DNA from: Candidatus Hydrogenedentota bacterium
GTDB lineage: Bacteria > Hydrogenedentota > Hydrogenedentia > Hydrogenedentales > SLHB01
Length of the DNA: 64,000 nucleotides
Direction: 5' to 3'
NCBI GenBank assembly: GCA_045863295.1
Contig: BTWA01000005.1
Location: forward strand, 128,001 to 192,000
In this document: positions 11,823-27,996 of the stretch, piece after piece
Position numbering within the stretch: position 1 is the stretch's first letter
Layout of the letters: each line of letters starts with the position of its first letter
The notes under the pieces: generated by a model
Told to the model about the DNA's origin: nothing
What the model saw: the letters and a program-made list of their open reading frames with translations, nothing else
Databases searched by the model: none
Position numbers and translations under genes: made by a program

Positions 11823-12914
11823 TCATTCTTCCACGGGTGCCGTATACTTGACGCCAACGGACTCCAGTTGTTTCATGAAGCCGTCCTTGTCCACGGCTTT
11901 TTTCCATGCTTCTTCCGGCTCCACGACATCCTCTTTGCACAGGCGCGCCAATTCGTCGTTGAGCAGCGTCATGCCTTCCTTCTTCGCGGTTTGCATGATG
12001 CTCATGATTTGCGAGGTCTTGGCTTCGCGAATTTGCGAGGATACCGCCTGATTCACGATTAGCACTTCGATGGCCGCCACGCGCCCTCCGCCTTTCTTCT
12101 TCAGCAAGTTCTGCGCGATCACGCCTTTCAAGGTGCCCGACAGCATGGTGCGGATTTGATCCTGTTGTTCCGCGGGGAACTGGTCAATCAAGCGATCGAC
12201 GGTGGATATGGCCGTGGTTGTATGCAGCGTGCCGAACACGAGGTGGCCGGTTTCCGCGGTTTCAATGGCGATGTGTGTCGTTTCCAGGTCGCGCATTTCG
12301 CCCACGAGCACGATATCCGGGTCTTCGCGCAGCGCCGCGCGCAAGGCCGCTTTGAAGCTCTTGGTGTGCGTGTGCACTTCGCGCTGGTTGATCAGGCACC
12401 GTTTGTTCTTGTGCACGAACTCGATGGGATCTTCAATGGTGATGATATGCTCACTGCGGGTTGCATTGATCCGGTCGATCAGCGCCGCCAGCGTGGTCGA
12501 TTTTCCGCTGCCGGTGGGTCCGGTCACAAGCACCAGCCCTTTGCCCAGCTGACAGAACTTCTTAACCGCCTCCGGCAGGTTTAATTGCTCGCACGTAAGA
12601 ATCGTGGAAGGTATCAGCCGGAAGACTCCGCCGATCCCCTTGTGATCCATGAACACATTGGAGCGGAACCGTCCTACGTCCGGTATCTCATGCGCGAAAT
12701 CGGTGTCATGCACCGCGGCGAACTCTTCCTGATTCTTGTGGGGCATAATTTCCCACAGCAGGTTTCTGACCGCGTCATCGGACAATTCTTCTTCACTGCG
12801 CAAGGCGACCATCGAGCCGTCTTTGCGGAAGATGGGTTTGTTGCCTGTGCACAAATGAAGGTCGGAAGCCCCATGGTCCACCATCATTTTCAAGTACTTG
12901 TCAATTACGGCCAT
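11823..12914 (-). CDS. pilT: Type IV pilus retraction ATPase
   Basis: ASDLHL, GPTGSGKSTT, TIEDPIE, LREDPDIVLVGEMRD, TGHLVFGTLH; start at MAVIDK (12914). Confidence 0.92.
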   Translation of the reverse strand: MAVIDKYLKMMVDHGASDLHLCTGNKPIFRKDGSMVALRSEEELSDDAVRNLLWEIMPHKNQEEFAAVHDTDFAHEIPDVGRFRSNVFMDHKGIGGVFRLIPSTILTCEQLNLPEAVKKFCQLGKGLVLVTGPTGSGKSTTLAALIDRINATRSEHIITIEDPIEFVHKNKRCLINQREVHTHTKSFKAALRAALREDPDIVLVGEMRDLETTHIAIETAETGHLVFGTLHTTTAISTVDRLIDQFPAEQQDQIRTMLSGTLKGVIAQNLLKKKGGGRVAAIEVLIVNQAVSSQIREAKTSQIMSIMQTAKKEGMTLLNDELARLCKEDVVEPEEAWKKAVDKDGFMKQLESVGVKYTAPVEE

Positions 12915-13132
12915 TTGTCCAGTCTCCCTTCCCGACCCCATTCGTACGGGCTCAAACGCTACCACCGTAACTTCAATGAAGCAAATCGTCGCACCGCGCG
13001 GCGGAAATTTGGGCAGTTTTCGCAATTTGGGCCGGAGCGGGGTAATGTCGCATCGCGTTGGCGGTACCATGACCGTGGGTGGTACTCTATTCATTGTGCG
13101 CAACAGAAAACGTTTGGCAAGTGGATAAACGA

Positions 13133-14686
13133 ATGGGTAATTACAGCATTCGACGGGCATTGGCCGCCTCGGCCTTAATCCTCCTTCTTGCCGTGTCCGC
13201 CTATGCTGACGTGACCGTCGGATTGGGCCAGGGTCAGGGTTGGGCGGGCGGCCTTGCCCAGACGCAAGTGAGTCTGCAGGGAAGTCCTGCTCCTGCGGTG
13301 TTGGAAATCCGTTTTTTGTTCGATTCCAACAAACTAGACCTGATCGGAGTGCAACCGGGTCCTGTCGTAACGTCTGCCAATAAGTCGCTCTCATGGGAGG
13401 AATCCCCTCCGGGCCGCGGCAAGATTGTGATTGTTGGTGTTAACACCCAGACCATGTCTAACGGGGTGTTGGCCAGTCTGCAATTTGCCATAAAGTCCGC
13501 GGCCCAAGCCGGCAACGTGATTACTCTCGATGGCGACTCCATGTCGGCCTCGGGCGCGGCGGGTGAAACCCAGGCGACGGTGTTGAACGACGGTCAGGTG
13601 ACCGTTGTGACCTGTTCGCAGCCGGCAACTCCAACCGGACTGACTGCAACCGATGGCGCACACCCCGACAGAGTGCATCTTGCTTGGGCTCCTGTAGCGA
13701 GCACATCGGAGTACGTGATTTACCGATCCACCTCGTCCAACGCACAGACGGCCACCGCAATTGCCACTGTGACGGCAACTGAGTATGACGACCGGTCGGC
13801 GGATGCGCCTGCCGCTGCCGCGGGATGTTCTCCGGGCGGAGTCAAGACCTATAGCTATTGGGTGGCGGCCAAAGCGCCGTGCGGGGAGAGCCCTTTCAGC
13901 GCCAGTGATACCGGTTTTCGCGGATTCGCGAAATTGGCGGTACAAGGCGCTGCAAAAGCGATGACCATGCCTCCGCCTGGGCTTGCCGTTGCCACAGGGT
14001 CGACGGCGGCCGTTCGCCTCACCGCACGGGATCCCATCGACCCGGCCACTTTATGGGGGCAGTTGGATGGGAGGGCGTATCCCGCTGAATGGGTCCCGGT
14101 TAACGAGCGCGACGGCTGGGCTTTGTGCCGCTTGGACGGATCGATAGCTGCGGGAGCTACTTTTATTTGGAGTGCCGGCGCGCGTTCGATTCGTGGTGAA
14201 CTGGTTGGACCGTTCAGTGCGGCCTTCCCGGTTTCGGACGGTGGGGACGCTTCCGATGCACTCCTATCCGATGTTCCTCCGCTGGCGACGGGCGTTGGGC
14301 CGATCCACGTTGTGGGCCCGATGCAAGTATATGACTTACCCTATGTTATCGACATATCCATTCCGGATGGCAGCGAGCCGTCGGAGGTTCAGTTATTTTA
14401 CTACCTTCAGAACGATACAGGCAGCGCCTGGTACCCGGCGGAGGACGTGGAAGGCTGGCTGGCTTCACCGATACAGCCGGTGACTGGCGAGGACGGCCGC
14501 GTTGTCTTGCGCGCCGCAGTCCACCATGGTGGTTTTGTTCAAGTGGGTGTTGGCCATGGTGAGGTACACGCCGCGGGTCTGTCAGGTGGTGTAGACGTAG
14601 CCGGGTTTTCGGGCTCAATCCTTGTCATTGTGCTCCTTTCACTTGCATGTTTGGCCTGCCGGTTTTTCCTTGCTGGCAAGGCCTGA
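13133..14686 (+). CDS. Surface protein: signal peptide, cohesin-like domain, FN3-like domain, C-terminal membrane anchor
   Basis: AYA signal cleavage site; FDSNKL..G....GVLASLQF (cohesin-like); PTGLTATDG...HLAW...YVIYRS (FN3); C-terminal hydrophobic helix plus basic residues. Confidence 0.65.
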   Translation: MGNYSIRRALAASALILLLAVSAYADVTVGLGQGQGWAGGLAQTQVSLQGSPAPAVLEIRFLFDSNKLDLIGVQPGPVVTSANKSLSWEESPPGRGKIVIVGVNTQTMSNGVLASLQFAIKSAAQAGNVITLDGDSMSASGAAGETQATVLNDGQVTVVTCSQPATPTGLTATDGAHPDRVHLAWAPVASTSEYVIYRSTSSNAQTATAIATVTATEYDDRSADAPAAAAGCSPGGVKTYSYWVAAKAPCGESPFSASDTGFRGFAKLAVQGAAKAMTMPPPGLAVATGSTAAVRLTARDPIDPATLWGQLDGRAYPAEWVPVNERDGWALCRLDGSIAAGATFIWSAGARSIRGELVGPFSAAFPVSDGGDASDALLSDVPPLATGVGPIHVVGPMQVYDLPYVIDISIPDGSEPSEVQLFYYLQNDTGSAWYPAEDVEGWLASPIQPVTGEDGRVVLRAAVHHGGFVQVGVGHGEVHAAGLSGGVDVAGFSGSILVIVLLSLACLACRFFLAGKA

Positions 14687-14948
14687 GCGGGCCGCACAGC
14701 CTGTATTATGTACATATTTTAAACACTCCCTGATCGGATTCTTTACGGTCGGAATCCCGTTTCTGTTGTAAGTCCTTTTCTATCAATACCCACTCCATGG
14801 CATTCCAATTGCTGTCCTTTGTGGATATGTGGGTTTGCCGCAGTAAACTTGTGTATAACGCGGATAGTGTGTTTATTAGCAACTGGTGTTATCGTAGTGC
14901 AGCTTTTCTGCTGATCTTGGGTGCTACCGATACAGAGGGAATTCGCGC

Positions 14949-17900
14949 GTGTTGGATCGGGACCGAAACTTACTGTTCGGCGTTTTTGCTGTGCAGCTCA
15001 AGCTGGTGTCTCCTGCACAAATCATGGAGGTGGCTGCCGCTTGGGCGGTCGATCCGTCTCGCGATCTACCGGATCGGCTTCGCGATGCCCGTTTGCTGAC
15101 CGAGAGTGATTTCCAGCTTGTCCTTGATTTTGTAAACCGGGCGGTCGAGGCGCATCAAGGCAATCCATCCATGGCGTTGCAGCGATTCGGCGGCGAGGCG
15201 CTTGCCTACCAGTCGCTCCAACTTTCCGGGCCACAGACGGTCCCCGGAGAAACGGCGCGCGACACCAGCCCCGACGTGCTTGAGAATCTACTTTCTGAAG
15301 AACTCCCCAAGATACTGGAAACGACGGGTCGCTATTCGTTGAAGTCGGAACATGCGCGCGGCGGTCAAGGGCGCCTGTTGCTCGTGCACGACGAGCAGAT
15401 GGGCCGTGACATTATTTTGAAAGAGTTGTTGCCGTCCGGGAAGTCGGGCTTGGGAACGACGACGCCGATACGCCAGACGGCGAATCTGGTTTCGCGTTTC
15501 CTTCGCGAGGCCAAGATTACGGGGCAACTGGAGCATCCGTCCATCGTTCCCGTGTACGAATTGGGTTTGCGGCCCGAGGGCGTACCGTATTACACGATGA
15601 AGCTCGTGAAGGGCCGGACGTTATATTCTTCAATCCGCGGTCGCCACACGTTGGAAGAGCGGCTTGGCCTTTTGCGGAATTTTCTCGATCTTTGCGAGGG
15701 GGTGGCGTACGCGCACAGCCGTGGCGTGTTACATCGCGATCTCAAGCCGCAGAATGTCATGGTGGGGCAATTTGGCGAGACGGTCATTCTGGATTGGGGC
15801 CTGGCGAAGATAAAGGGTTCGCTGGACGACCGTGACGAGATTATCACGCAGATGATTTCCAAGCTGCGTATGGAGGAGACCGACCTCAAAGAGACCGCCC
15901 CGGATGCAATACTTGGCACGCCTGTGTACATGTCGCCTGAGCAGGCACGAGGCGATTTGAAGGCCGTGGACGAACGATCGGACATCTATTCGCTGGGGGT
16001 GACGCTGTATGAGGTCATTACCGGCAATATTCCTTACAAGAGCAGTTCCATGAAACAGGTCATGGAAGAAATCGTGACGAAGGATCCGCCGTCCTGCACG
16101 GCGGTGATTCCCGATGTGCCTCCGGAATTGGCGGCGATCTGCGATCGATGCCTTAAGCGGAAGAAGGAAGAACGATACCAGTCGGCGAAAGATCTGGCCG
16201 ACGACGTTGATCGATTTCTGTCGGGTGCTCTGGTCAAGGCCTATTCCTACAAAACCAGTGAGATACTTGCGCGGGTCTACAAGCGGCACCGGTCGATAAT
16301 CAATCTGGCGGCTGCCGCGTCGGCCGTCATCCTGATCACTATTGGCGTTTCCTACGTGCAGGTATTGCAGGCGCGCAACGAGGCGGTAATTGCTCGCGAC
16401 GATGCGCAATCCGAGAATTACGCGAACCAGATGTTGCTGACAGCGCAATACATGCAAGGTAACCACTACGATCTCGCGCGCCGGACGCTGTGGGAAACGG
16501 AAGAAGCCCTTCGGGACTGGGAATGGGGCTATCTGTTGAACCGGTGCAACGTCGAGTTGGCCGTGTTGGAGGATCGTGTTGGATTTGCGTTCCGTCCGGA
16601 CGGTTTGCAGATGGCGACGATATCCCGAAACCGTCCGATTGAAATCGTGAATGCGGCGACCGGGGAAGTGGTGCGCAACATCGCGGAGAGCGCGGTACGA
16701 CCGTTGGATATAGTCTATAGCCCGGACGGGTCGCTGCTTCTGGCTCCGACGATGAGCGGGGCGGTCATGATTTGGGACGCAGTTTCGGGCGATCGCAAAC
16801 GGGCAATTGCCGTGCCCGGAGCGGTGCCTGAACACGCCGCCTTTGATGCCGCCTCCAAGCGTATTGCCACAACGTGGGATGATGATTCCGTCCGGATCTT
16901 CGATGTGGAAACCGGGGCGAGTCTGGCCCAACTAGAGGGAAAAAAATCCGGTATTGGCAAACCGCAATTCAGCCCGGACGGAACGACCCTTGTGTGTGTA
17001 AGCAGTCAGGCCGGGGAGGCGTCGGCTTGGGCGGCCTATGTGCACGACAGTGCCACTGGGGCAATGTTGTTTTCTATTCCGGCGACTGTGGCACAGTTTT
17101 CGCCAGATGGAGCGTTTATCGTTGGAGCGAATCGAACGGGAATTCAGATTTATGAGGCCGGCGACGGAGAAGTCCGGGTAAAGCTGGCGGAGCATCCCGG
17201 ACTTATTGCGGATTTTTGCATATCGCGAGACTCCGGCTTCGTGGCGACCGGTTGCGCGGATGGGGTGGTGCGGGTATTTGATGTTCACACCGGCGAATTG
17301 CTTGGAGAATATAAAGGCGACAACCCGATACGGTTTGTTCGGATCAGTCCGGACAGTCAATATCTGCTGACGGCTACCCTGGACGGCAAACTGACCGTAT
17401 GGGACCGCAATACGGGTCAAGCAATCAACGAGATGCGCGGGCACACGGATCTCGTCCGGTTGGCCGATTTCAGTCCGGATGGATTGCGATTCGCGACCGC
17501 ATCGTTCGACCAGAGCGTGCGCGTGTGGGGCGTGGCGAGTTCGCCGGGGCAGCGTGTGCTGGCTAAGCCGGCGGCCAACGTGAATTTTGCGACGATCAGT
17601 AAGGACCGGTCGCAGTTGGCCGTGTTGTTAAACAACCGCACTTTGGAGATTCGGCGCATCGCGGACGGATCGACCGTAGCGAATTTCGCCGGGCATGGAC
17701 AAAAAGGCGGATTCGCCGCATCGTTCAGCCCCGACGGCGCGCAGTTGGTGGCCGCTCTCGACGACCATACGCCGACCGTTTGGGATATTGCCGCGGGAAC
17801 TGTGGTTACGCAACTCAATGGACATCGCGGAGCCGTACATGGTCTGGCGTACCGCCCCGACGGCGGGACCATTGCCACCGCATCGTGGGACGGAACGGCC

Positions 17901-19277
17901 CGAACGTGGTCTGCTTCGGACGGTAGTGCCCTGTTCACCATGGAAGGGCATGAAGGACCCGTGTTGTGCGTGGCGTTCAGTCCCGACGGAAAACAGATCG
18001 CCTCTGGGTCGAAAGACAAGACCGTACGCCTTTGGGACGCGGCCACCGGCGTTGCGATTCGCACGTTTACCGGCCATTCCGACGCCGTAAGAGGGATTCT
18101 TTTCTGCCGGCTTTCGAATCGCCTGATCAGTTGTTCGGAGGATGGCACGATTCGGTTTTGGGATTTGAGTACAGGAGGAACCGTACTTACGTTGGAAGGT
18201 CACGAGCAGTCGGTACACCGTGTTGCGATGAGTGGGGATGAGCAGCGGCTGGTATCCTCGGCAATCGACGGCACCTTCAAGGTTTGGAAAGTAGAGACCG
18301 GGGAGGCGCTGGCAACGGTAAAGGCAGCCGAGGGCTTTTTGTGGATCGCATCGTTCGATTCTACGGGCCGGGTCATTGTGTCCGCGTCAGCGACCGGGGC
18401 GATCCGGGCTTGGGAGGCCGTTCCGTGGCACGCATCGGATTTGCCCGGGGACACGAGCATGACCGTTCCGCAGCGGGTCGAGGCATTTAGGGCAGCGCAA
18501 TTGGAGGCCGGCGTTGCTCCCGCAAAGCCGGATAAAGTTCACATTATTGTCGCGATTACCCGAGACGACTTGATCGAGGGGATTGGCCGTCTCGCCGATG
18601 GAATAGAGGCTTCCGTGAAATCCATTGTTCCAGCGGCTGTGTTGACGCCCGAGCCCGTCGTGGTAGACGATCGATTGTACGGCGCGGTGGCCAAGCTGTG
18701 TATGAAGCGAGGCGATCAGATTCACGAGATTGGATCCGTGACAGTGCATCCGGACGATTCGTCGGTTGCGGGTCTGCGCCAACTGGCGCAATCCATCGGA
18801 ACGACGGATACGCTTCCCCTAGTGCGGATCACACGGGGCGTTGACACTATCGAATTGCAGCCGGTGGTGGTGACGCGACGAACTCGCGAGGAAGTAGTCT
18901 CCGTACCACGAGCCCGGCTGCAAGAGTATCTCGACAAACAGGTGGAGTATCTGAAATCGAATTCGGCAGGTGTCCTCAAGAAGAGCCGGGCCGATGCCGC
19001 TGAATTGGGAGAGTTGCCCGAGGGTCAGGAGATTCGCGGAATCGTATTCGATACTGACGCCGATCGGATGCCGCAAACGTTGTTGCAGTCAGTTGGACTT
19101 TCCCAAGGGGATCGCCTGATGGTGCTGGAAGGCAAACCGGTAATTTCCTATAGCCTAGCGGTGCAGACGCTGATCGAATTGCAGTCGCGCGCCCACGGTA
19201 GCGAGCCGGTGTCCATTTCCGCGGAAGTACATCGTGGCAATCTGGAAACGGTGCGGCTTAACATACAAATAGAGTGA
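14949..19277 (+). CDS. Large Ser/Thr kinase - hydrophobic helix - WD40 beta-propellers - PDZ-like C-terminus
   Basis: GTG start after GAGGGA; RGGQG, ILKE, HRDLKPQN, DWGLAK, GTPVYMSPE; many GH..V..FSPDG..SxDxT.RxWD repeats; LGL..GDxL..G.PV PDZ-like segments. Confidence 0.9.
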   Translation: MLDRDRNLLFGVFAVQLKLVSPAQIMEVAAAWAVDPSRDLPDRLRDARLLTESDFQLVLDFVNRAVEAHQGNPSMALQRFGGEALAYQSLQLSGPQTVPGETARDTSPDVLENLLSEELPKILETTGRYSLKSEHARGGQGRLLLVHDEQMGRDIILKELLPSGKSGLGTTTPIRQTANLVSRFLREAKITGQLEHPSIVPVYELGLRPEGVPYYTMKLVKGRTLYSSIRGRHTLEERLGLLRNFLDLCEGVAYAHSRGVLHRDLKPQNVMVGQFGETVILDWGLAKIKGSLDDRDEIITQMISKLRMEETDLKETAPDAILGTPVYMSPEQARGDLKAVDERSDIYSLGVTLYEVITGNIPYKSSSMKQVMEEIVTKDPPSCTAVIPDVPPELAAICDRCLKRKKEERYQSAKDLADDVDRFLSGALVKAYSYKTSEILARVYKRHRSIINLAAAASAVILITIGVSYVQVLQARNEAVIARDDAQSENYANQMLLTAQYMQGNHYDLARRTLWETEEALRDWEWGYLLNRCNVELAVLEDRVGFAFRPDGLQMATISRNRPIEIVNAATGEVVRNIAESAVRPLDIVYSPDGSLLLAPTMSGAVMIWDAVSGDRKRAIAVPGAVPEHAAFDAASKRIATTWDDDSVRIFDVETGASLAQLEGKKSGIGKPQFSPDGTTLVCVSSQAGEASAWAAYVHDSATGAMLFSIPATVAQFSPDGAFIVGANRTGIQIYEAGDGEVRVKLAEHPGLIADFCISRDSGFVATGCADGVVRVFDVHTGELLGEYKGDNPIRFVRISPDSQYLLTATLDGKLTVWDRNTGQAINEMRGHTDLVRLADFSPDGLRFATASFDQSVRVWGVASSPGQRVLAKPAANVNFATISKDRSQLAVLLNNRTLEIRRIADGSTVANFAGHGQKGGFAASFSPDGAQLVAALDDHTPTVWDIAAGTVVTQLNGHRGAVHGLAYRPDGGTIATASWDGTARTWSASDGSALFTMEGHEGPVLCVAFSPDGKQIASGSKDKTVRLWDAATGVAIRTFTGHSDAVRGILFCRLSNRLISCSEDGTIRFWDLSTGGTVLTLEGHEQSVHRVAMSGDEQRLVSSAIDGTFKVWKVETGEALATVKAAEGFLWIASFDSTGRVIVSASATGAIRAWEAVPWHASDLPGDTSMTVPQRVEAFRAAQLEAGVAPAKPDKVHIIVAITRDDLIEGIGRLADGIEASVKSIVPAAVLTPEPVVVDDRLYGAVAKLCMKRGDQIHEIGSVTVHPDDSSVAGLRQLAQSIGTTDTLPLVRITRGVDTIELQPVVVTRRTREEVVSVPRARLQEYLDKQVEYLKSNSAGVLKKSRADAAELGELPEGQEIRGIVFDTDADRMPQTLLQSVGLSQGDRLMVLEGKPVISYSLAVQTLIELQSRAHGSEPVSISAEVHRGNLETVRLNIQIE

Positions 19278-19399
19278 TTTCTGGGGCTGTCCATTGCACC
19301 ATCATGATTTCCCAATGCCCAATGCTGGGAAAAAAGGTGGAGGATTCGCCAGGAAGCGGTCAGTACGTGTGCAATGCCTTGAGCGATCCATGCCTCTAG
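19274..19399 (+). pseudogene. 41-codon ORF or 3' remnant carrying the C-terminal motif of the downstream paralog family
   Basis: Manual translation: (GTG)ISGAVHCTIMISQCPMLGKKVEDSPGSGQYVCNALSDPCL*. The last 30 nt are 25/30 identical to the end of gene 19444-20262. The GTG overlaps the kinase TGA. Confidence 0.7.
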
Positions 19400-19443
19400 A
19401 GCAGCGGAAGTGTTGATGACAACCAACTCCAAGGAGACCGACC

Positions 19444-20262
19444 ATGAGTTACCCGCCCACCGACTTGCCTCACAGTTGTCAGGCTTCGCTATGGATAGCA
19501 CAACAAGCGTTTCCTGCACGGTCGATGGAGTATATCTACGACCTGCCGCTTTACACCGACAACAATTCCGGGTTGCTCGATGTCATGTACGATTTTCTCG
19601 AGGGTACAGCGGACTATACGTATGTGTCCCAGAAGCGCAACAAAGAGATACGGGATTCGATTGATGTTTTCAGGGGCGAAAACACTGCGGGAGACAAGAT
19701 ACAGACGATCAAGCAGATGTTGCGAACGGGAAAGCGGCGCAGCAATGCCAATCCGGGGTCTAAAACACTAAGCGGCTTTTTGCGTGTGATGTTGGACTCT
19801 GGCATTTACTTCGCGAACAACCACACGAATTTGAACAAGGTCAACGAGGTAAAAGCGCTGCTGGATGGAACGGATCCCTATGACACTCCCCTTTGGGACA
19901 TGACGGGAAGTATCGAGGGTGGCCCGCAGAATATCCGATTTGGGAGCTTGACCTATGAGCAATTGTTCAACACGCAACTCCGGAAATTGGATAAAACGCT
20001 TTTCCGGGCTGTGCGGCGAGCGAAGCGGTTGAGCGTGCTCTGGTGCGATGTCACACAACGGTACACCGGCGATCCCGGCGGATCGATCTTCAAAGGGCTG
20101 CCGGACGACATAGTGAAGAAAGGCGGCGACGGAAACGATCAATGTTGTTACAACGGCGCATGCATCACATCTGAGTTTCCCGGCGACTACTGCGGCCAGA
20201 TAGACGATGGCACGGGGACCGGCACGTTTACGTGCAACGCGTTGAGCGATCCGTGCCACTAA
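19444..20262 (+). CDS. Uncharacterised protein with six-Cys C-terminal tail, paralog 1
   Basis: AAGGAG RBS; shares YPP-LP-SC-LW, IY-PLY, NNHT, LWD, AVRRAKR and SDPCH with the next two ORFs. Confidence 0.9.
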   Translation: MSYPPTDLPHSCQASLWIAQQAFPARSMEYIYDLPLYTDNNSGLLDVMYDFLEGTADYTYVSQKRNKEIRDSIDVFRGENTAGDKIQTIKQMLRTGKRRSNANPGSKTLSGFLRVMLDSGIYFANNHTNLNKVNEVKALLDGTDPYDTPLWDMTGSIEGGPQNIRFGSLTYEQLFNTQLRKLDKTLFRAVRRAKRLSVLWCDVTQRYTGDPGGSIFKGLPDDIVKKGGDGNDQCCYNGACITSEFPGDYCGQIDDGTGTGTFTCNALSDPCH

Positions 20263-20303
20263 CCTGACCACAAGTTGACCGAAACCCAACAAGGAGACCA
20301 CGC

Positions 20304-21173
20304 ATGCCGTACCCGCCAGCACACTTGCCTGAAAGTTGTCAGCTTACGTTGTGGCTGGCAGAGTATTGCTTTGTCACGGTATCGCCTGGGCCCATTTTTA
20401 CACCGCATTCGCTTCAGACAATTTATCGGACTCCTTTGTACACCACGTCCGGCGCGCCTGGGATATTGAACATACTCAAGGAGGCGTTTAAGGCCAACCC
20501 GACCTTGCCGCCGCAAGGTTCACCCGCGCCGCCCATCGGCAACTACATTACGCCGGCAAGGCGAGCCCGCGTCGTGAAAGCGATCGATGTCTTTGCGCTT
20601 GGCGGCGCCAATGCACTGACCATAGAGCAAATGCTGATTCAGGGCATCCGGCGAAATCGCGATGCACGAACCCCGCGGACCCTGGAAGGGATTCTCAAAG
20701 TGTTGGCGAACAACGGCATCTACCTGGCCAACAATCACACGTCGCCGAGCGCCAGGACGGAAATCGAGACTCTTTTGGTGGGACGTGCCGGCCTTGAGAG
20801 CAGTCTGTGGGATTATATGGGGACGCTGGGGGCAGGGGGCAATGTTCAGTTTGGCAGCATTACGATGCGGCAACTCTTTGAGACTCCTGCTGCGAACCTG
20901 ACGGGCGAGTTTTTCCTTGCGGTTCGGCGAGCGAAGCGGATGGGTATTTTGTGGGCGCATCCGAGGTACAGCGCGATTGGCGACCCGACGGGTATCGCAC
21001 TTGCGTCGGCTTCTGGATTTGAGGGCGCCGCCATGTTCTACGGCCGGGAAGGCAACAAGAAGTGCTGTTATGAAGGCGCCTGCTGGGATTCCGAGGACGA
21101 CGACGACTATTGCGAACCGGTCGAGGGAGTCAATCCGCCGGTATGCAATGCGATGAGCGATCCGTGTCATTGA
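20304..21173 (+). CDS. Uncharacterised protein with six-Cys C-terminal tail, paralog 2
   Basis: AAGGAG RBS; same conserved motifs as paralogs 1 and 3. Confidence 0.9.
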   Translation: MPYPPAHLPESCQLTLWLAEYCFVTVSPGPIFTPHSLQTIYRTPLYTTSGAPGILNILKEAFKANPTLPPQGSPAPPIGNYITPARRARVVKAIDVFALGGANALTIEQMLIQGIRRNRDARTPRTLEGILKVLANNGIYLANNHTSPSARTEIETLLVGRAGLESSLWDYMGTLGAGGNVQFGSITMRQLFETPAANLTGEFFLAVRRAKRMGILWAHPRYSAIGDPTGIALASASGFEGAAMFYGREGNKKCCYEGACWDSEDDDDYCEPVEGVNPPVCNAMSDPCH

Positions 21174-21229
21174 ACTAAGAGAAGCCGGTTGCGGAACTGG
21201 CGTATCGGGTACTTAGAAGGAGAGTTTGC

Positions 21230-22075
21230 ATGGCCTATCCCCCATCCAACCTGCCGAAGAGTTGCCGATTGACCTTGTGGCTGGCGGAGAGCGCCTATAA
21301 CGTGTCTGTGCCCACCCATGACAATCCCAACAACACCCGGGCACGAACCCTGCGAGAGATTTACGAGTTACCGCTTTATGGAGGCAATGCCGGGCTGCTG
21401 GACCTGATGTACAATCACATAAACAATGCGTCGAACTGGCGCGACTACATGACGGATACGGTGCGTTCCGATATTCTGAATGCCATTGTGAGATTCAAAG
21501 AGAAGGACCAAGACCGCAGTCACCGCTTTACGATTCGTAAAATGCTGCGAGACGGCGAACGGCGGAGCAACGCGAATCCTGGCGCCGGCACGTTGTCTGG
21601 CTTTCTGCGCGTCATGCTCAACAATGGGGTGTACTTCCCGAACAATCACACTGACGAAGACAAGTTGGGCGCAATCGGTGACATTTTGGATGATCCCAAG
21701 CCCGGCAAGACTCCGCTTTGGGACATGGAAGGCGAGATCAAGGATCTTGGCAAGTACAAGTTTGGCGATTTAACCATGAAGATGTTGTTTGAAACCCCGC
21801 TCAAGAAACTCGACCGGGAATTGTTTCGTGCAGTCCGTAAGGCGAAGCGCATGGGCATTATGTGGGCCGATTTGAAGTATAGGGAAATTGGCAATCCAAA
21901 ACCGGTAAGTGGCAAGCGAGATGACCAAATCGAGATGCTGTTTTACGGTGAGGAGAACCAGAATTGTTGTTTTCAAGGCACTTGTTGGCCCTCCGACGAT
22001 CATGACGATTATTGCGGCGCCATTGAGGGTAGCAATCCACCTGAATGCAGCGCCATGAGTGACCCTTGCCACTAA
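21230..22075 (+). CDS. Uncharacterised protein with six-Cys C-terminal tail, paralog 3
   Basis: AAGGAG RBS; same motifs; RRSNANPG.-TLSGFLRVML is shared with paralog 1. Confidence 0.9.
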   Translation: MAYPPSNLPKSCRLTLWLAESAYNVSVPTHDNPNNTRARTLREIYELPLYGGNAGLLDLMYNHINNASNWRDYMTDTVRSDILNAIVRFKEKDQDRSHRFTIRKMLRDGERRSNANPGAGTLSGFLRVMLNNGVYFPNNHTDEDKLGAIGDILDDPKPGKTPLWDMEGEIKDLGKYKFGDLTMKMLFETPLKKLDRELFRAVRKAKRMGIMWADLKYREIGNPKPVSGKRDDQIEMLFYGEENQNCCFQGTCWPSDDHDDYCGAIEGSNPPECSAMSDPCH

Positions 22076-22097
22076 ATTGAAGTGCATTTGTGATTTG

Positions 22098-22134
22098 TTG
22101 CCCATCGGCGATCCGTCTCGGTGGGCAATTTTTT
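22098..22134 (+). terminator. Rho-independent terminator closing the paralog array
   Basis: TTGCCCATCG ... CGGTGGGCAA stem followed by TTTTTT. Confidence 0.85.
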
Positions 22135-22186
22135 CCTATCACCACTATTCGATTCCGCAAAACCCTACTTGTAGTAACACTTTCCG

Positions 22187-22215
22187 TTGACAACCTCTAT
22201 ATGTTGTGGTAGGCT
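22187..22215 (+). promoter_or_regulatory. Sigma70-type promoter upstream of fliQ
   Basis: TTGACA (22187-22192), 17-nt spacer, TAGGCT (22210-22215) with extended -10 TG. Confidence 0.6.
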
Positions 22216-22321
22216 CATTCTTGCCGACCTTGCACACCCATGGATGGGGTAAACCCATGCAAGCGGCTGAAATTAAACAATTTATGGCAATAACTGCCAC
22301 CATTGGGGGCTTTGCACACCG

Positions 22322-22591
22322 ATGTCGCCGGATGTGGTTATTAACTTGGGCCGTGACGCGATGCTCGTCACGTTGCTGGTTTCAGCACCGATGCTGCTAT
22401 CCGGGATGATTGTCGGGCTCGTTATCAGCATCTTCCAGTCGGTCACCCAGATTCAGGAAATCACGCTCACCTTCGTGCCTAAAATTGTGGTGGTGATGGT
22501 GGCGTTTCTGATTTTTCTTCCTTGGATGATGTCGGTATTGCTGGGATTCGTACAACCCTTGTTTGGCGAGTTCGGGACTATCTTGTTCTGA
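22322..22591 (+). CDS. fliQ: Flagellar export gate protein FliQ
   Basis: GLVISIFQSVTQIQEITLTFVPK. Confidence 0.95.
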   Translation: MSPDVVINLGRDAMLVTLLVSAPMLLSGMIVGLVISIFQSVTQIQEITLTFVPKIVVVMVAFLIFLPWMMSVLLGFVQPLFGEFGTILF

Positions 22592-22645
22592 ATCTCGTGC
22601 AGGGCAGCCCCCGTAGCCTTTGGCTGCGGGAGTCGAAAGGCACTG

Positions 22646-23416
22646 ATGGTATTTGAGGTCGAAGTATTCAAGGTCTTTGCGCTGGTGATGATACGTTTCA
22701 GCGGGCTGATCGTGTCGGCGCCCATCCTTGGATCCAACAATTTTCCGGTGATGGCGAAGGCGGGTCTGGCGGCGTTTTGCGCGTTGCTGATCACGCCGGT
22801 GTTGCCATCTTTGCCCGAGCCTTTGCCGGACACGGTGCTGGGACTCGCCGCGATGGGCGTTGGTGAACTGCTCATCGGGTTGATGATGGGGTTTGTGATG
22901 ACGTTGCTGTTTGCCGCGATTCAGGTGGGCGGGCAAATCATCGACATGCTCAGCGGGTTCGCGTTGATGAACATCTTCAATCCGGCCCTGGAAACGCAGG
23001 TGCCCATTTTTGGTTTCTTTTTGTTCATCATGGCGACGCTGTACCTGTTGGTTTTGAATCTCCATCACGTAATGTTGCGCGCGTTGGCGGCGACGTTTGA
23101 CAAGATACCGCTGGGCGGTTTCGTGGCGAATCCCGCGTTGCTTCGTGAAGTGAGCACGTGGGGCAGCGCGATGTTCTATGACGGTCTGTTGATAGCTGCT
23201 CCAGTGACGGCGGCGCTGCTTTTGACGTATGTGACGATGGGGCTGTTGGGGCGGCTGGTGCCTCAATTGCATTTGTTCGTGGTTGGATTTCCGTTGACGA
23301 TTGGCATGGGGCTTCTGGTGGTGGCTTTCTCGATCGGCCTGTATCTGCAGGTGGTCGACGGCATGTATCACCGGATGATCCAGAACTTGACCGTGGTTGT
23401 ACGAGGGATGGCTTAA
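22646..23416 (+). CDS. fliR: Flagellar export gate protein FliR
   Basis: R.SGL..AP, GELLIG, GQIID..SG, LNLHH, RLVPQL..VGFP. Confidence 0.93.
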   Translation: MVFEVEVFKVFALVMIRFSGLIVSAPILGSNNFPVMAKAGLAAFCALLITPVLPSLPEPLPDTVLGLAAMGVGELLIGLMMGFVMTLLFAAIQVGGQIIDMLSGFALMNIFNPALETQVPIFGFFLFIMATLYLLVLNLHHVMLRALAATFDKIPLGGFVANPALLREVSTWGSAMFYDGLLIAAPVTAALLLTYVTMGLLGRLVPQLHLFVVGFPLTIGMGLLVVAFSIGLYLQVVDGMYHRMIQNLTVVVRGMA

Positions 23417-23419
23417 CGC

Positions 23420-24538
23420 ATGGCGGAAGACCTAGGCGGAGAGAAGACATTACCCGCGTCGCCACGGAAGATCAGTCAGGCGCGCGAGGAAGGAAACGTC
23501 GCCAAGAGCGCTGATTTGAACGCAGCGCTGGCGCTTCTTGTCGCCGCGTTCGGCCTGTGGTACATGGGCCGCGAATTGATGGAACGCATGGTGCATACCA
23601 CCGCGGTGTACTTCGAGAACATCGGCACATTTGAAGTGACGGTTGAGAACGCGGTGGACGTGGCCGTGGATGTGACCCAACGGTTGGGCGTGTTGGTGCT
23701 GCCGTTGGCCATACTGTTGACGGTGGCCGGCCTGGCCGTGAATTTTCTGCAGGTGGGGTTTTTGTACGCCCCGAAGGCGCTGCAGCCCAAATTCAGCCGT
23801 TTGAATCCGATTGCGGGATTCAGCCGGTTCTTTAAACTGCGCACGCTGGTGGATTTGATCAAGTCGTTGCTGAAAGTGGCGATTGTTACCTGGATCGTGT
23901 ATCTGACGCTGCGCAGCCGGATGGACGATTTGTTGTTGTACATGTTTTTGACGCCGCTTGGCATTACGCACCAAATGGCCGATTTGATTTACCTTGTGTG
24001 GCTGCGCGCCGCGGGGGCCATGTTGATTCTCGGACTGCTCGACTTTGGTTTTCAGAAGTGGCAGTACAACAAAGACCTGATGATGACCGTGCAGGAGATG
24101 AAAGAAGAGAACAAGCAGATGGAAGGCGATCCGCGCATCAAACAGCGCATTCGCCAGATCCAACGCCAGATGGCGATGCAGCGGATGATGAAAGAAGTGC
24201 CGAAGGCGGACGTCATCATCACCAACCCGATTCGATTTGCGGTGGCGATCCGGTATGACATGGGCAACATGGCGGCGCCGGTGGTTGTGGCCAAAGGCGC
24301 GCGTTTGCTGGCCAAGCGCATCCGCGAAATCGCGATGGAGAATCAGGTGCCCATTATCGAGAAACCGGAATTGGCCCGGGCTCTGTATAAGGAAATAGAA
24401 GTGGGCCATCCGATTCCGGAGAAGTTGTTCAAGGCGGTCGCGGAAGTACTTGCGTTCGTGTACCGGATCGATCGCCGGCAGGAAAAGATTCGCGAACGGC
24501 AGGCGAGCATGGTCCGTCCGACGTACGCGACGCAATAG
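23420..24538 (+). CDS. flhB: Flagellar export switch protein FlhB
   Basis: EKT..SPRK..AREEGNV, EGDPRIK, TNPIR, APVVVAKG, LARALY. Confidence 0.95.
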   Translation: MAEDLGGEKTLPASPRKISQAREEGNVAKSADLNAALALLVAAFGLWYMGRELMERMVHTTAVYFENIGTFEVTVENAVDVAVDVTQRLGVLVLPLAILLTVAGLAVNFLQVGFLYAPKALQPKFSRLNPIAGFSRFFKLRTLVDLIKSLLKVAIVTWIVYLTLRSRMDDLLLYMFLTPLGITHQMADLIYLVWLRAAGAMLILGLLDFGFQKWQYNKDLMMTVQEMKEENKQMEGDPRIKQRIRQIQRQMAMQRMMKEVPKADVIITNPIRFAVAIRYDMGNMAAPVVVAKGARLLAKRIREIAMENQVPIIEKPELARALYKEIEVGHPIPEKLFKAVAEVLAFVYRIDRRQEKIRERQASMVRPTYATQ

Positions 24539-24608
24539 ACGCGAGAGCAATAGGATTTGAGCGCTTCCCGCGAACGGGGAAGTACTCTTATTTGAGCGAG
24601 GGAATACT

Positions 24609-26702
24609 TTGGCGGTAGTGCCCCGGGAAATGACGATGCAGCCGGACACCGGCTGGTCGCGTATGCTGCGCAATCAGGATTTGGCGCTGGCGGTTGCCGT
24701 TGTGCTGATCCTGGCGGTGCTATTCATTCCCGTGCCCGCGATCGTGCTCGACGTGTTGCTGACACTCAATATTTCCCTTTCGGTGGTCATTCTCCTGGCG
24801 ACGTTGTATCTACGCGAACCCGTGGAATTTGCGGTATTTCCCTCGTTGTTGCTGATGTTGACCCTATTCCGGCTGAGCTTAAACGTAGCTTCGACCCGTC
24901 TTATACTCTCGGATGCAAGCGCCGGAAACGTAATTGACGCATTCGGAACTTTTGTGACGAGCGGAAGCTATGTTGTCGGCGTTGTTATTTTCTCCATTCT
25001 GGTTGTGATTCAATTCGTGGTCATTACGCGCGGCGCCACGCGCATCTCCGAAGTGGCTGCGCGGTTTACGTTGGACGCCATGCCCGGCAAGCAGATGGGC
25101 GTGGACGCGGATTTGAACGCGGGTCTTATCACGGAAGAACAGGCTCGGGCACGGCGGCACAAGATCGAGCGCGAAGCCGATTTCTATGGAGCGATGGACG
25201 GCGCGACGAAGTTCGTTCGCGGCGAGGCCATTGCTGGACTCATCATTACGCTTATCAACATCTCGGCGGGTTTCATTATCGGCATGCTGATGATGGGCAT
25301 GGACGTATCCGAATCCGCCGCCATCTATACCCGGCTTACGATTGGCGATGGCCTGGTTTCGCAGATTCCTTCGCTTCTGGTGTCCACGGCGGCAGGCATG
25401 ATTGTCACGCGGGCGGTTTCGGAAGACAACCTGGGTTCGGATCTGACGCGTCAGATGACGCGTTATCCCCGGGCCTTGGGGATAGCGGCGCTGATGCTGG
25501 CTGGCTTTGCCGTAGTGCCGGGAATGCCGACCGTACCGTTCCTGCTGGTGGCCGGATTTCTGGGCATGCTTGCGTTTCAAACGACGCAAGCGTTGAAAAG
25601 AGAAGAAGCGCAGGCCGTGGCCGAGAAGGCGATGGAAAAGGAAATCGCGCCGGAGCAGGCTGCTCCGCGCACGGAAGATTTGCTCACGGTGGATCCGCTG
25701 AAGATTGAGTTGGGATACGGATTGATTTCGCTTGCAGATCCCAAACAGGGCGGCGATTTGTTGACGCGTGTTCAGATCATCCGGCAACAGTTGGCGACCA
25801 AGCTGGGGATAATTGTGCCGGTTGTGCGCATTGTCGACAACATGCGCCTGAAGCCATCGGAATACCGCATCAAGATACGCGAAGCGGAAGTGGCCCGTTA
25901 CGAATTGATCACTGATCGCTACCTCGCCATGAATCCCGGTCTTGTAGACGAAGAAGTGCCGGGCGTGGCGACCAAAGAGCCAGCTTTTGGGTTGCCCGCG
26001 GTTTGGGTGTCCGACGAATACCGGCATCGCGCGGAGCTGATGGGATATACGATTGTGGAACCGACGGCGGTGTTGGCTACTCACCTGACCGAAATCCTGA
26101 CTGGTCACGCGGATGAACTATTGACACGTCAGGACGTGCGCAATCTGGTGGATCATGTAAAAGAGTCGGCGGCGTCCGTGGTTGAAGAACTGACACCGGG
26201 AATACTTTCACTCGGTGAGATACAGAAAGTGCTTCAGAACTTGTTGCGGGAGCGCGTTTCCATCCGGAATTTGGAGAGCATTCTGGAGGTGTTGGCGGAC
26301 TTTGGTCCGCGAACGCGCGATCCCGAGTTGCTGACGGAATATTCGCGTCATGCCTTGGCCCGTCAGATCAGCGCCGAGTATGCCGATGAAGACGGCGCAT
26401 TGCGTGTGGTTACGCTTGCACCCAATGTCGAGCGCGAGATATTGGATGCGATACAGCAGAGCCAAACCGGCGAATATATTCCGTTGCCCCCCTCGCGCGT
26501 GGACGAATTAGGGCGAAAGACGGTGGACGCCGTTCAGTCCCTGGTGATGGCGGGATACGAGCCTGTAGTGCTGACGTCCGCGCAGGTCCGGCGCTATTTC
26601 AAGCGGATTGCGGATCGGCACATGCCAAAGATAGTTGTGTTGTCCTACAATGAAATCGATCCGGCTGTGCGGCTGGAAAGCGAAGGACAGGTGAGCGCTT
26701 AA
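24609..26702 (+). CDS. flhA: Flagellar export protein FlhA
   Basis: FPSLLL, EVAARFTLDAMPGKQM, FYGAMDGA, TIGDGLVSQIP, LLRERVSIRNL; exact start (TTG 24609 or a nearby ATG) uncertain. Confidence 0.95.
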   Translation: MAVVPREMTMQPDTGWSRMLRNQDLALAVAVVLILAVLFIPVPAIVLDVLLTLNISLSVVILLATLYLREPVEFAVFPSLLLMLTLFRLSLNVASTRLILSDASAGNVIDAFGTFVTSGSYVVGVVIFSILVVIQFVVITRGATRISEVAARFTLDAMPGKQMGVDADLNAGLITEEQARARRHKIEREADFYGAMDGATKFVRGEAIAGLIITLINISAGFIIGMLMMGMDVSESAAIYTRLTIGDGLVSQIPSLLVSTAAGMIVTRAVSEDNLGSDLTRQMTRYPRALGIAALMLAGFAVVPGMPTVPFLLVAGFLGMLAFQTTQALKREEAQAVAEKAMEKEIAPEQAAPRTEDLLTVDPLKIELGYGLISLADPKQGGDLLTRVQIIRQQLATKLGIIVPVVRIVDNMRLKPSEYRIKIREAEVARYELITDRYLAMNPGLVDEEVPGVATKEPAFGLPAVWVSDEYRHRAELMGYTIVEPTAVLATHLTEILTGHADELLTRQDVRNLVDHVKESAASVVEELTPGILSLGEIQKVLQNLLRERVSIRNLESILEVLADFGPRTRDPELLTEYSRHALARQISAEYADEDGALRVVTLAPNVEREILDAIQQSQTGEYIPLPPSRVDELGRKTVDAVQSLVMAGYEPVVLTSAQVRRYFKRIADRHMPKIVVLSYNEIDPAVRLESEGQVSA

Positions 26703-26703
26703 C

Positions 26704-27996
26704 ATGGATCAGAAGCTGAGCCGTTATCGGGGTGACACGTTGGACGAAGCCTACGCGGAGATGCGCAGGGCCTTGGGGCCTGATGCGATTGTGCTGCGCA
26801 CGGCGTTTGTGCGTGAGGGCGGTCTCAGGGGATTTCTGGGCAAGAAGCGCGTTGAATTGACGGCCACCCACGCAGATGCGCCCGGAACATCCGATCGGCG
26901 GAAGAGCCCGATGGAGCGGAAGTACTCGGCTCAGATGAGCGGTCCGGACTCCAAGATTGGCTCGGACGAGCGCGTTGCGGATTCAGTGGCTCATTTCCAG
27001 CGCATGTTGACGGATGCGAGGCCTCGGGTGGGTAGTGGCCGCACATTTTCGCCGAGTATGCGGGGCAACGCGGCCATAGCCGTGGATGATAGTCCGATGG
27101 TCAGGGCGTTGCGCAGCGAGATACGCGAAATGCGATCGCTGATGGAAGTGCTGGTGGCCGAGAGTTCCTCAGAGACGGCGGCACCGGAGTATGCGCCCCA
27201 GTATCGGATGCTTGTGGAATCAGGCGTTTCGCGGGAGGCTGCGGCCTCACTGCTGGCACACGTGGCGCGCACGAGCGATGCGGACGTGATCCGGCGGCCT
27301 GAGGTGTTTCAACAACGCATCCACAACGAGATCCAGAAGCGGGTTTCGGTTACTGGTGGGGTTCGTGTCCGGCTTGGCACGTGCCGTAAAGTGGCGCTTG
27401 TAGGACCTACAGGCGTGGGAAAAACGACCAGCATTGCGAAGATGGCCGCCCGGCTTGCCGTGCATTCCAGGGCGCGCGTGGCCTTGATCACGGCCGACAC
27501 CTATCGCGTTGCGGCGCCGGATCAGTTGCGCGTGTATGCGAATATTATTGGCGTTCCCCTCCATGTGGTTCATGACAGCCGGGAGATGGCGGACGCTATT
27601 TTGGCGGTGAAGGACTATGATTTGGTCCTGATCGACACGGCTGGGGGCAGTCCGTTCAATACCACTCAAATTGGGGAGTTGGGTCAGGTGCTTCATGCCG
27701 CGTACCTCGACGAGGTCATGCTCGTGCTCGCGGCGAATACACGCGTGGAAGACATGCGGCACGCCGTGACGCATTTTGGCGCGCTTCGCCCCACGTCGAT
27801 ACTGTTTTCGAAACTGGATGAAACCACGTCGTATGGCGCCATATACACGATGGCGGAAGATACGGATTTACCATTGAGTTACTTCAGCACGGGTCAGAGC
27901 GTACCGGAGGACTTTGTAGCGGCAAAACCAGAGACAGTGGCGGGCCTGCTTTTTGACGGAACCAAAACCATGGCGGCGCTCACGCGCGAACCGTAG
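26704..27996 (+). CDS. flhF: SRP-family GTPase FlhF
   Basis: LGPDAIVL N-terminus, GPTGVGKTT, DTYRVAA, DTAG, SKLDET, GQSVPED. Confidence 0.92.
   Translation: MDQKLSRYRGDTLDEAYAEMRRALGPDAIVLRTAFVREGGLRGFLGKKRVELTATHADAPGTSDRRKSPMERKYSAQMSGPDSKIGSDERVADSVAHFQRMLTDARPRVGSGRTFSPSMRGNAAIAVDDSPMVRALRSEIREMRSLMEVLVAESSSETAAPEYAPQYRMLVESGVSREAAASLLAHVARTSDADVIRRPEVFQQRIHNEIQKRVSVTGGVRVRLGTCRKVALVGPTGVGKTTSIAKMAARLAVHSRARVALITADTYRVAAPDQLRVYANIIGVPLHVVHDSREMADAILAVKDYDLVLIDTAGGSPFNTTQIGELGQVLHAAYLDEVMLVLAANTRVEDMRHAVTHFGALRPTSILFSKLDETTSYGAIYTMAEDTDLPLSYFSTGQSVPEDFVAAKPETVAGLLFDGTKTMAALTREP

Follow-up and report, generated by a model that had tools for sequence, protein, structure and literature searches.

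Turnover of tandem paralog arrays by gene birth and death leaves truncated pseudogene fragments, known as gene relics. In translationally coupled overlapping genes, the start of one gene lies over the stop of another in the form ATGA or GTGA. A third system is the silent partial cassette for gene conversion, for example pilS of Neisseria. To which of these should we compare a 69-nt element found between a kinase gene and an array of three paralogs in Candidatus Hydrogenedentota bacterium? The element lies at 19331-19399 of a 64,000-nt stretch of contig BTWA01000005.1; this whole stretch is called the window below, positions follow its numbering, and all features are on the + strand unless marked. 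The element is homologous to the C-terminal ends of all three downstream paralogs (P1, P2 and P3), of which P1 is the nearest. It is probably a non-functional relic of a fourth, first-in-line member of the array, hereafter P0.

A paralog end behind the kinase gene

The sequence-only reading of this DNA had given a translation of 19331-19399 and a match without gaps to the end of P1, and both were exact when the frame was re-translated and compared with P1 in a stop-anchored, ungapped way. The three paralogs all terminate in C-[NS]-A-[LM]-S-D-P-C-H and a stop. The fragment ends with CNALSDPC, Leu and a stop at 19370-19399, and so carries the terminal motif of the family, C-N-[AS]-[ML]-S-D-P-C, at the place where the family has it, within 0-12 residues of the stop. 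The five differences from P1 that had been counted in the last 30 nt were confirmed. Three are synonymous third positions (AAT/AAC, GCC/GCG and CCA/CCG), one lies between two stops (TAG/TAA), and one, CTC/CAC, puts Leu for His.

How far upstream does the homology reach? In the nine core codons 23 of 27 nt are identical to P1 (binomial p 1e-10), and in the 13 codons above the core, KKVEDSPGSGQYV against GQIDDGTGTGTFT in P1, the identity is 18/39 nt (p 0.0036). The BLOSUM62 score of these 13 codons is 24 (1/20000 shuffles and 2/20000 random 13-mers from the window reach it), and the replacements in this loop are conservative (V/I, E/D, S/T, Y/F). The 19 codons from the loop up to a GTG at the kinase stop have 13/57 nt identical to P1 (p 0.71), which is the background level. 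Because the core and the 13 codons are significant and the 19 codons above them are at background, the homology begins at 19331; the similarity falls to background at 19328-19331. Over the 69 nt the fragment is identical to P1 at 43 positions, to P2 at 35 and to P3 at 34. P2 and P3, with 3 codons fewer in their loops, lose the register past the core. The loop from Cys to Cys has 13 residues in P1 compared with 10 in P2 and P3, and that of the fragment aligns to P1 gap-free.

Other searches found the same place. The motif C[NSG][AS][LMQT]S[DEQ].C has five sites in the six frames of the 6.3-Mb genome, of which four are in the array (the three paralogs and the fragment) and the fifth is within an unrelated frame on contig C21. 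A hidden Markov model (HMM) of the family, run with all filters off, gave the fragment as the sole extra match among 334 frames of 13000-23000 (E 0.014) and aligned to it only at model positions 265-276 of 277. A tblastn search with P1 against its own genome gave a match at 19334-19393. As for what is missing, the fragment keeps the last two of six conserved tail Cys in register, and CC and YC are gone. It is without the helical body (~205 aa), the linker, the first four tail Cys, a start and a ribosome-binding site. The conserved N-terminal motifs of the body, Y-P...C..L-W and G-[IV]-Y-x-P-x-N-H, are absent from it, and pieces of the family body were not found elsewhere in the 96%-complete assembly.

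How long has the fragment been separate from the intact copies? In eight core codons, 3 of ~4.3 synonymous sites and 0 of ~19.7 non-synonymous sites differ from P1, and a comparable pattern is found in the core among P1-P3 themselves. The synonymous differences from P2 and P3 are as many as, or more than, those from P1, and codon by codon the fragment is a mosaic of the three paralogs, with a unique CCA in addition. Judged from these codons, the fragment is a diverged paralog end and no recent copy of any paralog. The same numbers bear on a proposal in which no full P0 ever existed and the 69 nt came as a fragment, by partial duplication, by template switch or as a conversion patch from a paralog tail. 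It would agree with the absence of paralog likeness upstream of 19331 and with the absence of any relative with a full fourth gene at the site. However, a donor patch should match its donor at synonymous sites, where P1 differs as given above and P2 and P3 are no closer, and the codon mosaic with its unique CCA speaks against a single source. An old patch, on the other hand, should show non-synonymous decay, and the core has none. The conservative loop replacements, moreover, indicate a long evolution in a coding gene. We regard this proposal as distinctly improbable.

Is the junction real? Logan contigs from four runs of four studies were compared with 18000-22600. One run, possibly the source of the assembly, has a single contig across this whole range. 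Two contigs from a run of another study, one of 270 nt (19110-19379) and one of 191 nt (19356-19546), each show 0 differences, and a third study has contigs over 19030-19287 and 19311-19558. No joint or indel in the gap is reported in the Logan contigs. An assembly chimera at about 19280-19330, the danger that the sequence-only reading had itself raised, is therefore rejected: the independent contigs bridge the place without a single difference, and the junction is real in the DNA. Note that the contigs over the array are all identical in sequence, and are therefore silent on variation.

The kinase is intact up to the gap. In an alignment with the kinases of four relatives its C-terminus reaches their final residues, and these kinases stop at the same aligned position (...VERG..., ~10 residues, stop). 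The gene is thus complete to its last residue and ends as its homologues end, so what is missing was downstream of 19277. A -1 frameshift or a readthrough adding the tail to the kinase was also considered and is unlikely. By eye, the 0 frame reaches a second TGA 8 codons on, the -1 frame into the tail is open only from 19259, and there is no slippery site of the form X-XXY-YYZ in 19259-19277. No tail was found on the kinases of the relatives compared.

The stretch of 53 nt that separates the fragment from the kinase stop (19278-19330) resembles no paralog. When it was locally aligned to P1, P2 and P3, the observed score was reached by 1153, 513 and 646 of 2000 shuffles. Gapped candidates for upstream homology were picked by eye (CATC..TGA..TTTCCC for P1, TGCTGGGA for P2, and a reading in which the 7-nt CCAATGC tandem shifts the frame), and none beats shuffles. 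The stretch may be a remnant of the old spacer between kinase and P0, or decayed P0 sequence, and a deletion junction would lie at or within its right edge. There is also a 7-nt tandem repeat, CCAATGC-CCAATGC, at 19315-19328 directly upstream of the fragment, and an A6 run at 19329-19334 at the homology boundary; both are typical slippage sites.

On the other side of the fragment, the spacer before P1 had been said to mirror that between P1 and P2. The lengths (44 nt and 41 nt) and the quoted words hold; the homology does not extend outside the Shine-Dalgarno decamer CAAGGAGACC of the next gene, which is the only likeness of the two spacers beyond chance. The global score of the whole spacer was reached by 27/5000 shuffles and that of the part before the decamer by 1683/5000; in a local-alignment version the counts were 15/2000 and 976/2000. 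Could the fragment itself serve as a silent partial cassette, a conversion donor, or as a regulatory RNA element for the ribosome-binding site of P1? Its position directly before the array would suit such a role, and so would the fact that the segment in common is the most conserved one. For a cassette, however, it is one 22-codon copy of the least variable part of the gene, which therefore has no diversity to donate, and signs of recent conversion are lacking. Folded as RNA, 19268-19460 does no better than shuffles (z +1.05; 169/200 shuffles at least as stable), which goes against an RNA element. Both roles are very improbable.

The relic reading then gives the following scenario. The ancestral order would have been kinase, P0, P1, P2, P3. 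A non-homologous deletion with its right end at about 19330 would have taken the ribosome-binding site of P0, its start and ~250 codons, leaving behind the 3' end of P0 and the P0-P1 spacer with the Shine-Dalgarno sequence of P1. Unequal crossing-over between paralogs would, by our reasoning, give a full-length hybrid and not a stump. The deletion would be young relative to the duplication of P0 and P1, given that the core differs from P1 at 3 synonymous sites and at no non-synonymous one. The pattern in the core is as among intact copies and the changes in the loop are conservative, so for most of the time since it parted from P1 the fragment would have belonged to a functioning gene. As a rough estimate, from small numbers and with synonymous sites that are saturated, it would have been neutral for at most ~1/5 of the divergence path from P1.

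The open frame of 41 codons

Is the fragment only a remnant, or is it still translated? The sequence-only reading had described a frame of 41 aa with 4 Cys that opens at a GTG overlapping the kinase stop, and translation of 19274-19399 bears this out. GTG 19274 lies over the kinase TGA at 19275-19277 (GAG-TGA), making a GTGA start-stop overlap at 19274-19277. The frame consists of 19 unrelated codons followed by the 22 codons of the fragment, and the two of its Cys that are not in register lie in the part with background similarity. If the deletion scenario is right, the frame would be accidental, with 19 unrelated codons that happen to be open in the frame of the relic.

One alternative is that the fragment is still used. 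Ribosomes ending translation at the kinase TGA would re-initiate at the GTG or at one of two ATG codons (19304, 19322). The product would be a free tail peptide of 26-41 aa with the C-x6-C loop CNALSDPC, which could, for example, compete for whatever recognises the tails of P1-P3. In favour of such a peptide, the frame is open and has the GTGA overlap, the core differs from P1 at 3 synonymous sites but 0 non-synonymous ones, and the peptide end is the most conserved stretch of the family. In the AlphaFold2 model of P1 described below the tail is predicted to fold separately, behind a linker with a predicted local distance difference test (pLDDT) score under 50. No terminator-like site above chance was found between the kinase and P1. 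No RNA run was found to contain 18900-19900, which weighs neither way.

There is also evidence on the other side. GGAG, GAGG and AGGA are all lacking before GTG19274, ATG19304 and ATG19322, that is, there is no Shine-Dalgarno sequence at any candidate start, and AAGGAG stands 7-8 nt before the ATG of P1, P2 and P3. Only 2/6 Cys are in register, with the invariant CC and YC missing, and the first 19 codons are unrelated sequence. Since 22 codons are open by descent, only 19-23 more had to stay open, for which we estimate a chance of ~1/3. The exact 41-codon product and its ATG19304 version are absent from a collection of 15 billion proteins in which P1 is present. A profile built from nine tails, run against 5.8 billion clusters, brought up no free tail of 24-77 aa (four candidates, none at E<=1), and the 10 longer matches are all family members of 139-291 aa. 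No tail motif outside full genes was found in 12 loci of relatives (L016-L021 and L024-L029). The alternative that the tail is made on its own as a module, by coupling to kinase translation, thus found no support, and continued use of the fragment is unlikely. The 41-codon frame appears to be a chance chimeric frame.

A receptor for such a peptide can at least be suggested. PDZ domains typically bind C-terminal peptides, and the kinases resemble PDZ-type repeats over their last ~290 residues. The gene next after these kinases encodes an extreme C-terminus that is invariant. PDZ_6 matches occur in 3/5 homologous kinase C-termini at E 1e-5 to 1e-4, under the Pfam cut-off, and the C-terminus of the window kinase has only a match of 0.13 to a different, PDZ-adjacent model. 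That a live 41-aa peptide acts as free ligand, or as competitor of the P1-P3 tails for their receptor, with this PDZ-like region as the candidate receptor, is quite unlikely. If it were true, the tail would be a portable recognition module by which a receptor-type kinase is connected with a new protein family. A complex prediction for the tail with the kinase C-terminal region gave a score of 0.02 and a mark of 0.32, which speaks neither for nor against binding. The PDZ-like lead keeps the tail-only peptide worth attention. By eye there is also a hydrophobic stretch after the kinase domain of the window kinase, and the WD40 part may therefore be extracytoplasmic.

How does the reading as a relic stand when all this is weighed? 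The earlier suggestion of a scar, left by a fourth member that lost its 5' part, fits all tests: the homology of the last 22 codons, the intact kinase, the lack of the body elsewhere, and the single clade formed by the paralogs (see below). A full P0 would once have stood here, a single deletion would have removed most of it, and what is left would not be usefully translated. Several points weigh against this. The sequence-only reading had proposed a comparison with related genomes, to see if a full fourth paralog occupies the site. None was found in 40 relatives, the contigs are all identical, and a metagenome scan for intact P0 gave 156 pattern matches, none confirmed. P0 as a full gene is something we infer rather than see, because no relative with an intact copy was found. 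The core is without non-synonymous change though its synonymous sites are near saturation, and this unchanged core fits a recent deletion and continuing selection on a peptide equally well. The missing Shine-Dalgarno sequence is weak evidence, because just 652/1817 crudely called long open reading frames (ORFs) have one, compared with 146/1817 control sites. The GTGA overlap is a form able to allow coupling. The change of His to Leu, finally, is no sign of damage, because family members have H, P, N, S, V, G or no residue at all in this last position.

Neighbourhood, family and relatives

The features of the locus are listed in Table 1. The fold of 22090-22140 after P3 has -18.8 kcal/mol (z -3.84), and 0/200 shuffles were equally stable. 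The hairpin within it is not listed by a consensus terminator scan, its loop, as read from the fold, exceeding what the scan allows. It probably ends a transcription unit of kinase, relic and array. The genes fliQ, fliR, flhB, flhA and flhF come after this hairpin (22322-27996). No fliP was seen between the array and fliQ (22076-22321). Pfam assigns the long neighbours to cohesin, Pkinase/WD40, flagellar export proteins, an SRP54-type GTPase and a T2SSE ATPase. Among the long + strand ORFs of 13079-27996 and one long ORF on the - strand (11823-13394), Pfam lists none of the maturase families (radical SAM, LanM/LanKC-type, YcaO and similar) that a Cys-rich precursor of a ribosomally synthesized and post-translationally modified peptide would have nearby.

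Table 1. Coordinates of the window locus, and of the kinase-type ORFs at the loci of relatives (last four rows; strand given where marked)
Feature	Position	Strand	Basis or remark
Cohesin-domain protein	13079-14686	+	Pfam
Ser/Thr kinase, 1442 aa, WD40 propellers, C-terminal region of ~290 aa	14949-19277	+	Pfam Pkinase and WD40
Gap from kinase to paralog 1, 166 nt	between 19277 and 19444	+	
Open frame of 41 codons, GTG over kinase TGA	19274-19399	+	translation VISGAVHCTIMISQCPMLGKKVEDSPGSGQYVCNALSDPCL, then stop
Stretch of 53 nt from kinase stop to putative relic	19278-19330	+	similarity to paralogs is background
Putative relic of array-member 3' end (P0), 22 codons and TAG	19331-19399	+	KKVEDSPGSGQYVCNALSDPCL, then stop
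Spacer before paralog 1	19400-19443	+	Shine-Dalgarno decamer CAAGGAGACC at 19430-19439, serving paralog 1
Paralog 1 (P1), 272 aa	19444-20262	+	intact copy closest to putative relic
Paralog 2 (P2), 289 aa	20304-21173	+	
Paralog 3 (P3), 281 aa	21230-22075	+	
Terminator-like hairpin, then six-T run	22097-22134	+	fold against shuffles
Kinase-type ORF, locus L024	8281-12591	-	
Kinase-type ORF, locus L025	171-4766		
Kinase-type ORF, locus L026	4050-6936		
Kinase-type ORF, locus L028	2-2983		

What are the proteins of the array? No Pfam or NCBIfam family was found for P1-P3, a word-indexed search of 5.8 billion clusters returned only the three themselves, and a search of a protein atlas gave no usable match. 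A HMMER scan of 1.84 billion representatives gave 27 proteins at E<=1e-3, three of them the window's own. Two long repeat proteins, in which a short stretch was matched many times, were left out, and the remaining 22 (139-345 aa) were taken. Their source records call them 'hypothetical protein' from metagenome-assembled genomes of Candidatus Hydrogenedentes. Among the titles and abstract openings that a literature search brought up, none concerned the family. In an alignment of 25 rows, nearly all invariant columns are in the tail (N-x-x-C-C, Y-C, C, S, C). The six tail Cys are arranged as N-x-K-C-C ... C ... Y-C ... C-N-x-x-S-D-P-C. Of these, CC, YC and the final pair are invariant in 25/25 rows, the third Cys and one N-terminal Cys are kept in at least 90%, and the terminal C-N-[AS]-[ML]-S-D-P-C is the most conserved stretch of all.

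With the 25 rows as input, the AlphaFold2 model of P1 has a pLDDT of 87.4 and a predicted template modelling score of 0.85. It consists of a helical body (1-207), the linker (208-228) of low pLDDT mentioned above, and a small beta-rich tail (229-272) with means of 89-94 over 10-residue blocks. No similar solved structure was found: the best Foldseek match in the PDB has E 0.64, and for VIA-align the highest Z over 48161 chains was 2.3 (0 chains at Z>=5). By eye, 5/22 members (P0005, P0009, P0010, P0011 and P0012) have a twin-arginine leader RRxF[LM] before the Y-P...C..L-W start, and the Pfam model TAT_signal matches one (E 0.005). P1-P3 are leaderless and start directly at the Y-P...C..L-W motif. 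A leader present in some members and absent in the window paralogs means that members of the family may differ in cell compartment.

Among 135 genomes of the phylum, 11, this one included, match the family at E<=1e-5, and the six best loci outside this genome were examined. At four of them (G112, G111 contig 31, G114 and G011) the family gene is downstream of a kinase-type ORF on the same strand, and the C-terminal regions of all four ORFs align with the window kinase. Pkinase was seen in G112 only; the ORFs of G114 and G111 contig 31 show WD40 only, and G011 was outside the Pkinase scan. At the other two loci, G111 contig 158 and G111 contig 267, the family gene does not follow such an ORF. 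At the G011 locus an S8 subtilase with a twin-arginine translocation (Tat) signal stands between the kinase and the family gene, and in G111 contig 158 a subtilase is directly downstream of the family gene. An S8 subtilase thus adjoins the family gene at 2/6 loci (L024 6858-8159 and L027 2451-3926, both on the - strand), and the one of L024 has the twin-arginine leader RREFLKF. No homologue of the G011 subtilase was found in the window genome at E<=1e-5, in a search made without a positive control. A flagellar neighbourhood in common with the G011 locus was proposed and proved wrong, the gene there being an ATPase of an ATP-binding cassette transporter.

Is there any sign that the array grew within this lineage? 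In a tree of 24 rows, from which the 139-aa fragment P0024 was dropped, P1-P3 form one clade with support 99/97. A single-protein search with P1 over 41 genomes found only its own genome and none (0/40) of the relatives. The clade and this absence from the relatives make the array a local expansion, in which gain and loss of members are plausible. Tandem pairs of more distant members occur in two other genomes of the phylum (L017 1015-2754, + strand; L020 1498-3212, - strand), so tandem duplication of the family recurs.

Comparison with known systems

If the reading as a relic holds, the array once had at least four members and one was lost, a case of gene birth and death within one genome. 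For annotation, this is a warning against entering the 41-codon frame as a gene from its sequence. The family outweighs the scar in interest. It is unannotated, of ~280 aa, with a confidently predicted fold unlike solved structures and an invariant six-Cys tail on a flexible linker, and its genes repeatedly stand directly behind that of a membrane-type Ser/Thr kinase with WD40 propellers. Should the tail turn out to serve in recognition, the relic would be a natural tail-only construct.

Then which of the known systems does the fragment resemble? Like the pilS cassettes, it is an incomplete copy, with no promoter, of an expressed gene next to it. Unlike them, it is a single copy of a conserved and not a variable part, and it has no signs of exchange. 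Its resemblance to translationally coupled genes is that GTG 19274 overlaps the kinase TGA at 19275-19277; it differs in that there is no Shine-Dalgarno sequence inside the kinase 3' end, the small ORF is unconserved in the searches, and half of it is unrelated sequence. With the unnamed Hydrogenedentota family it shares the terminal C-N-A-L-S-D-P-C and a loop like that of P1. Typical gene relics differ from it in two respects, that its core is free of non-synonymous change and that its frame is open back to the kinase stop. Like them, however, it is a short 3' piece at the edge of an array, with no start or ribosome-binding site of its own, beside a lineage-specific clade of intact copies. 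As a phenomenon, the scar is an ordinary gene relic.

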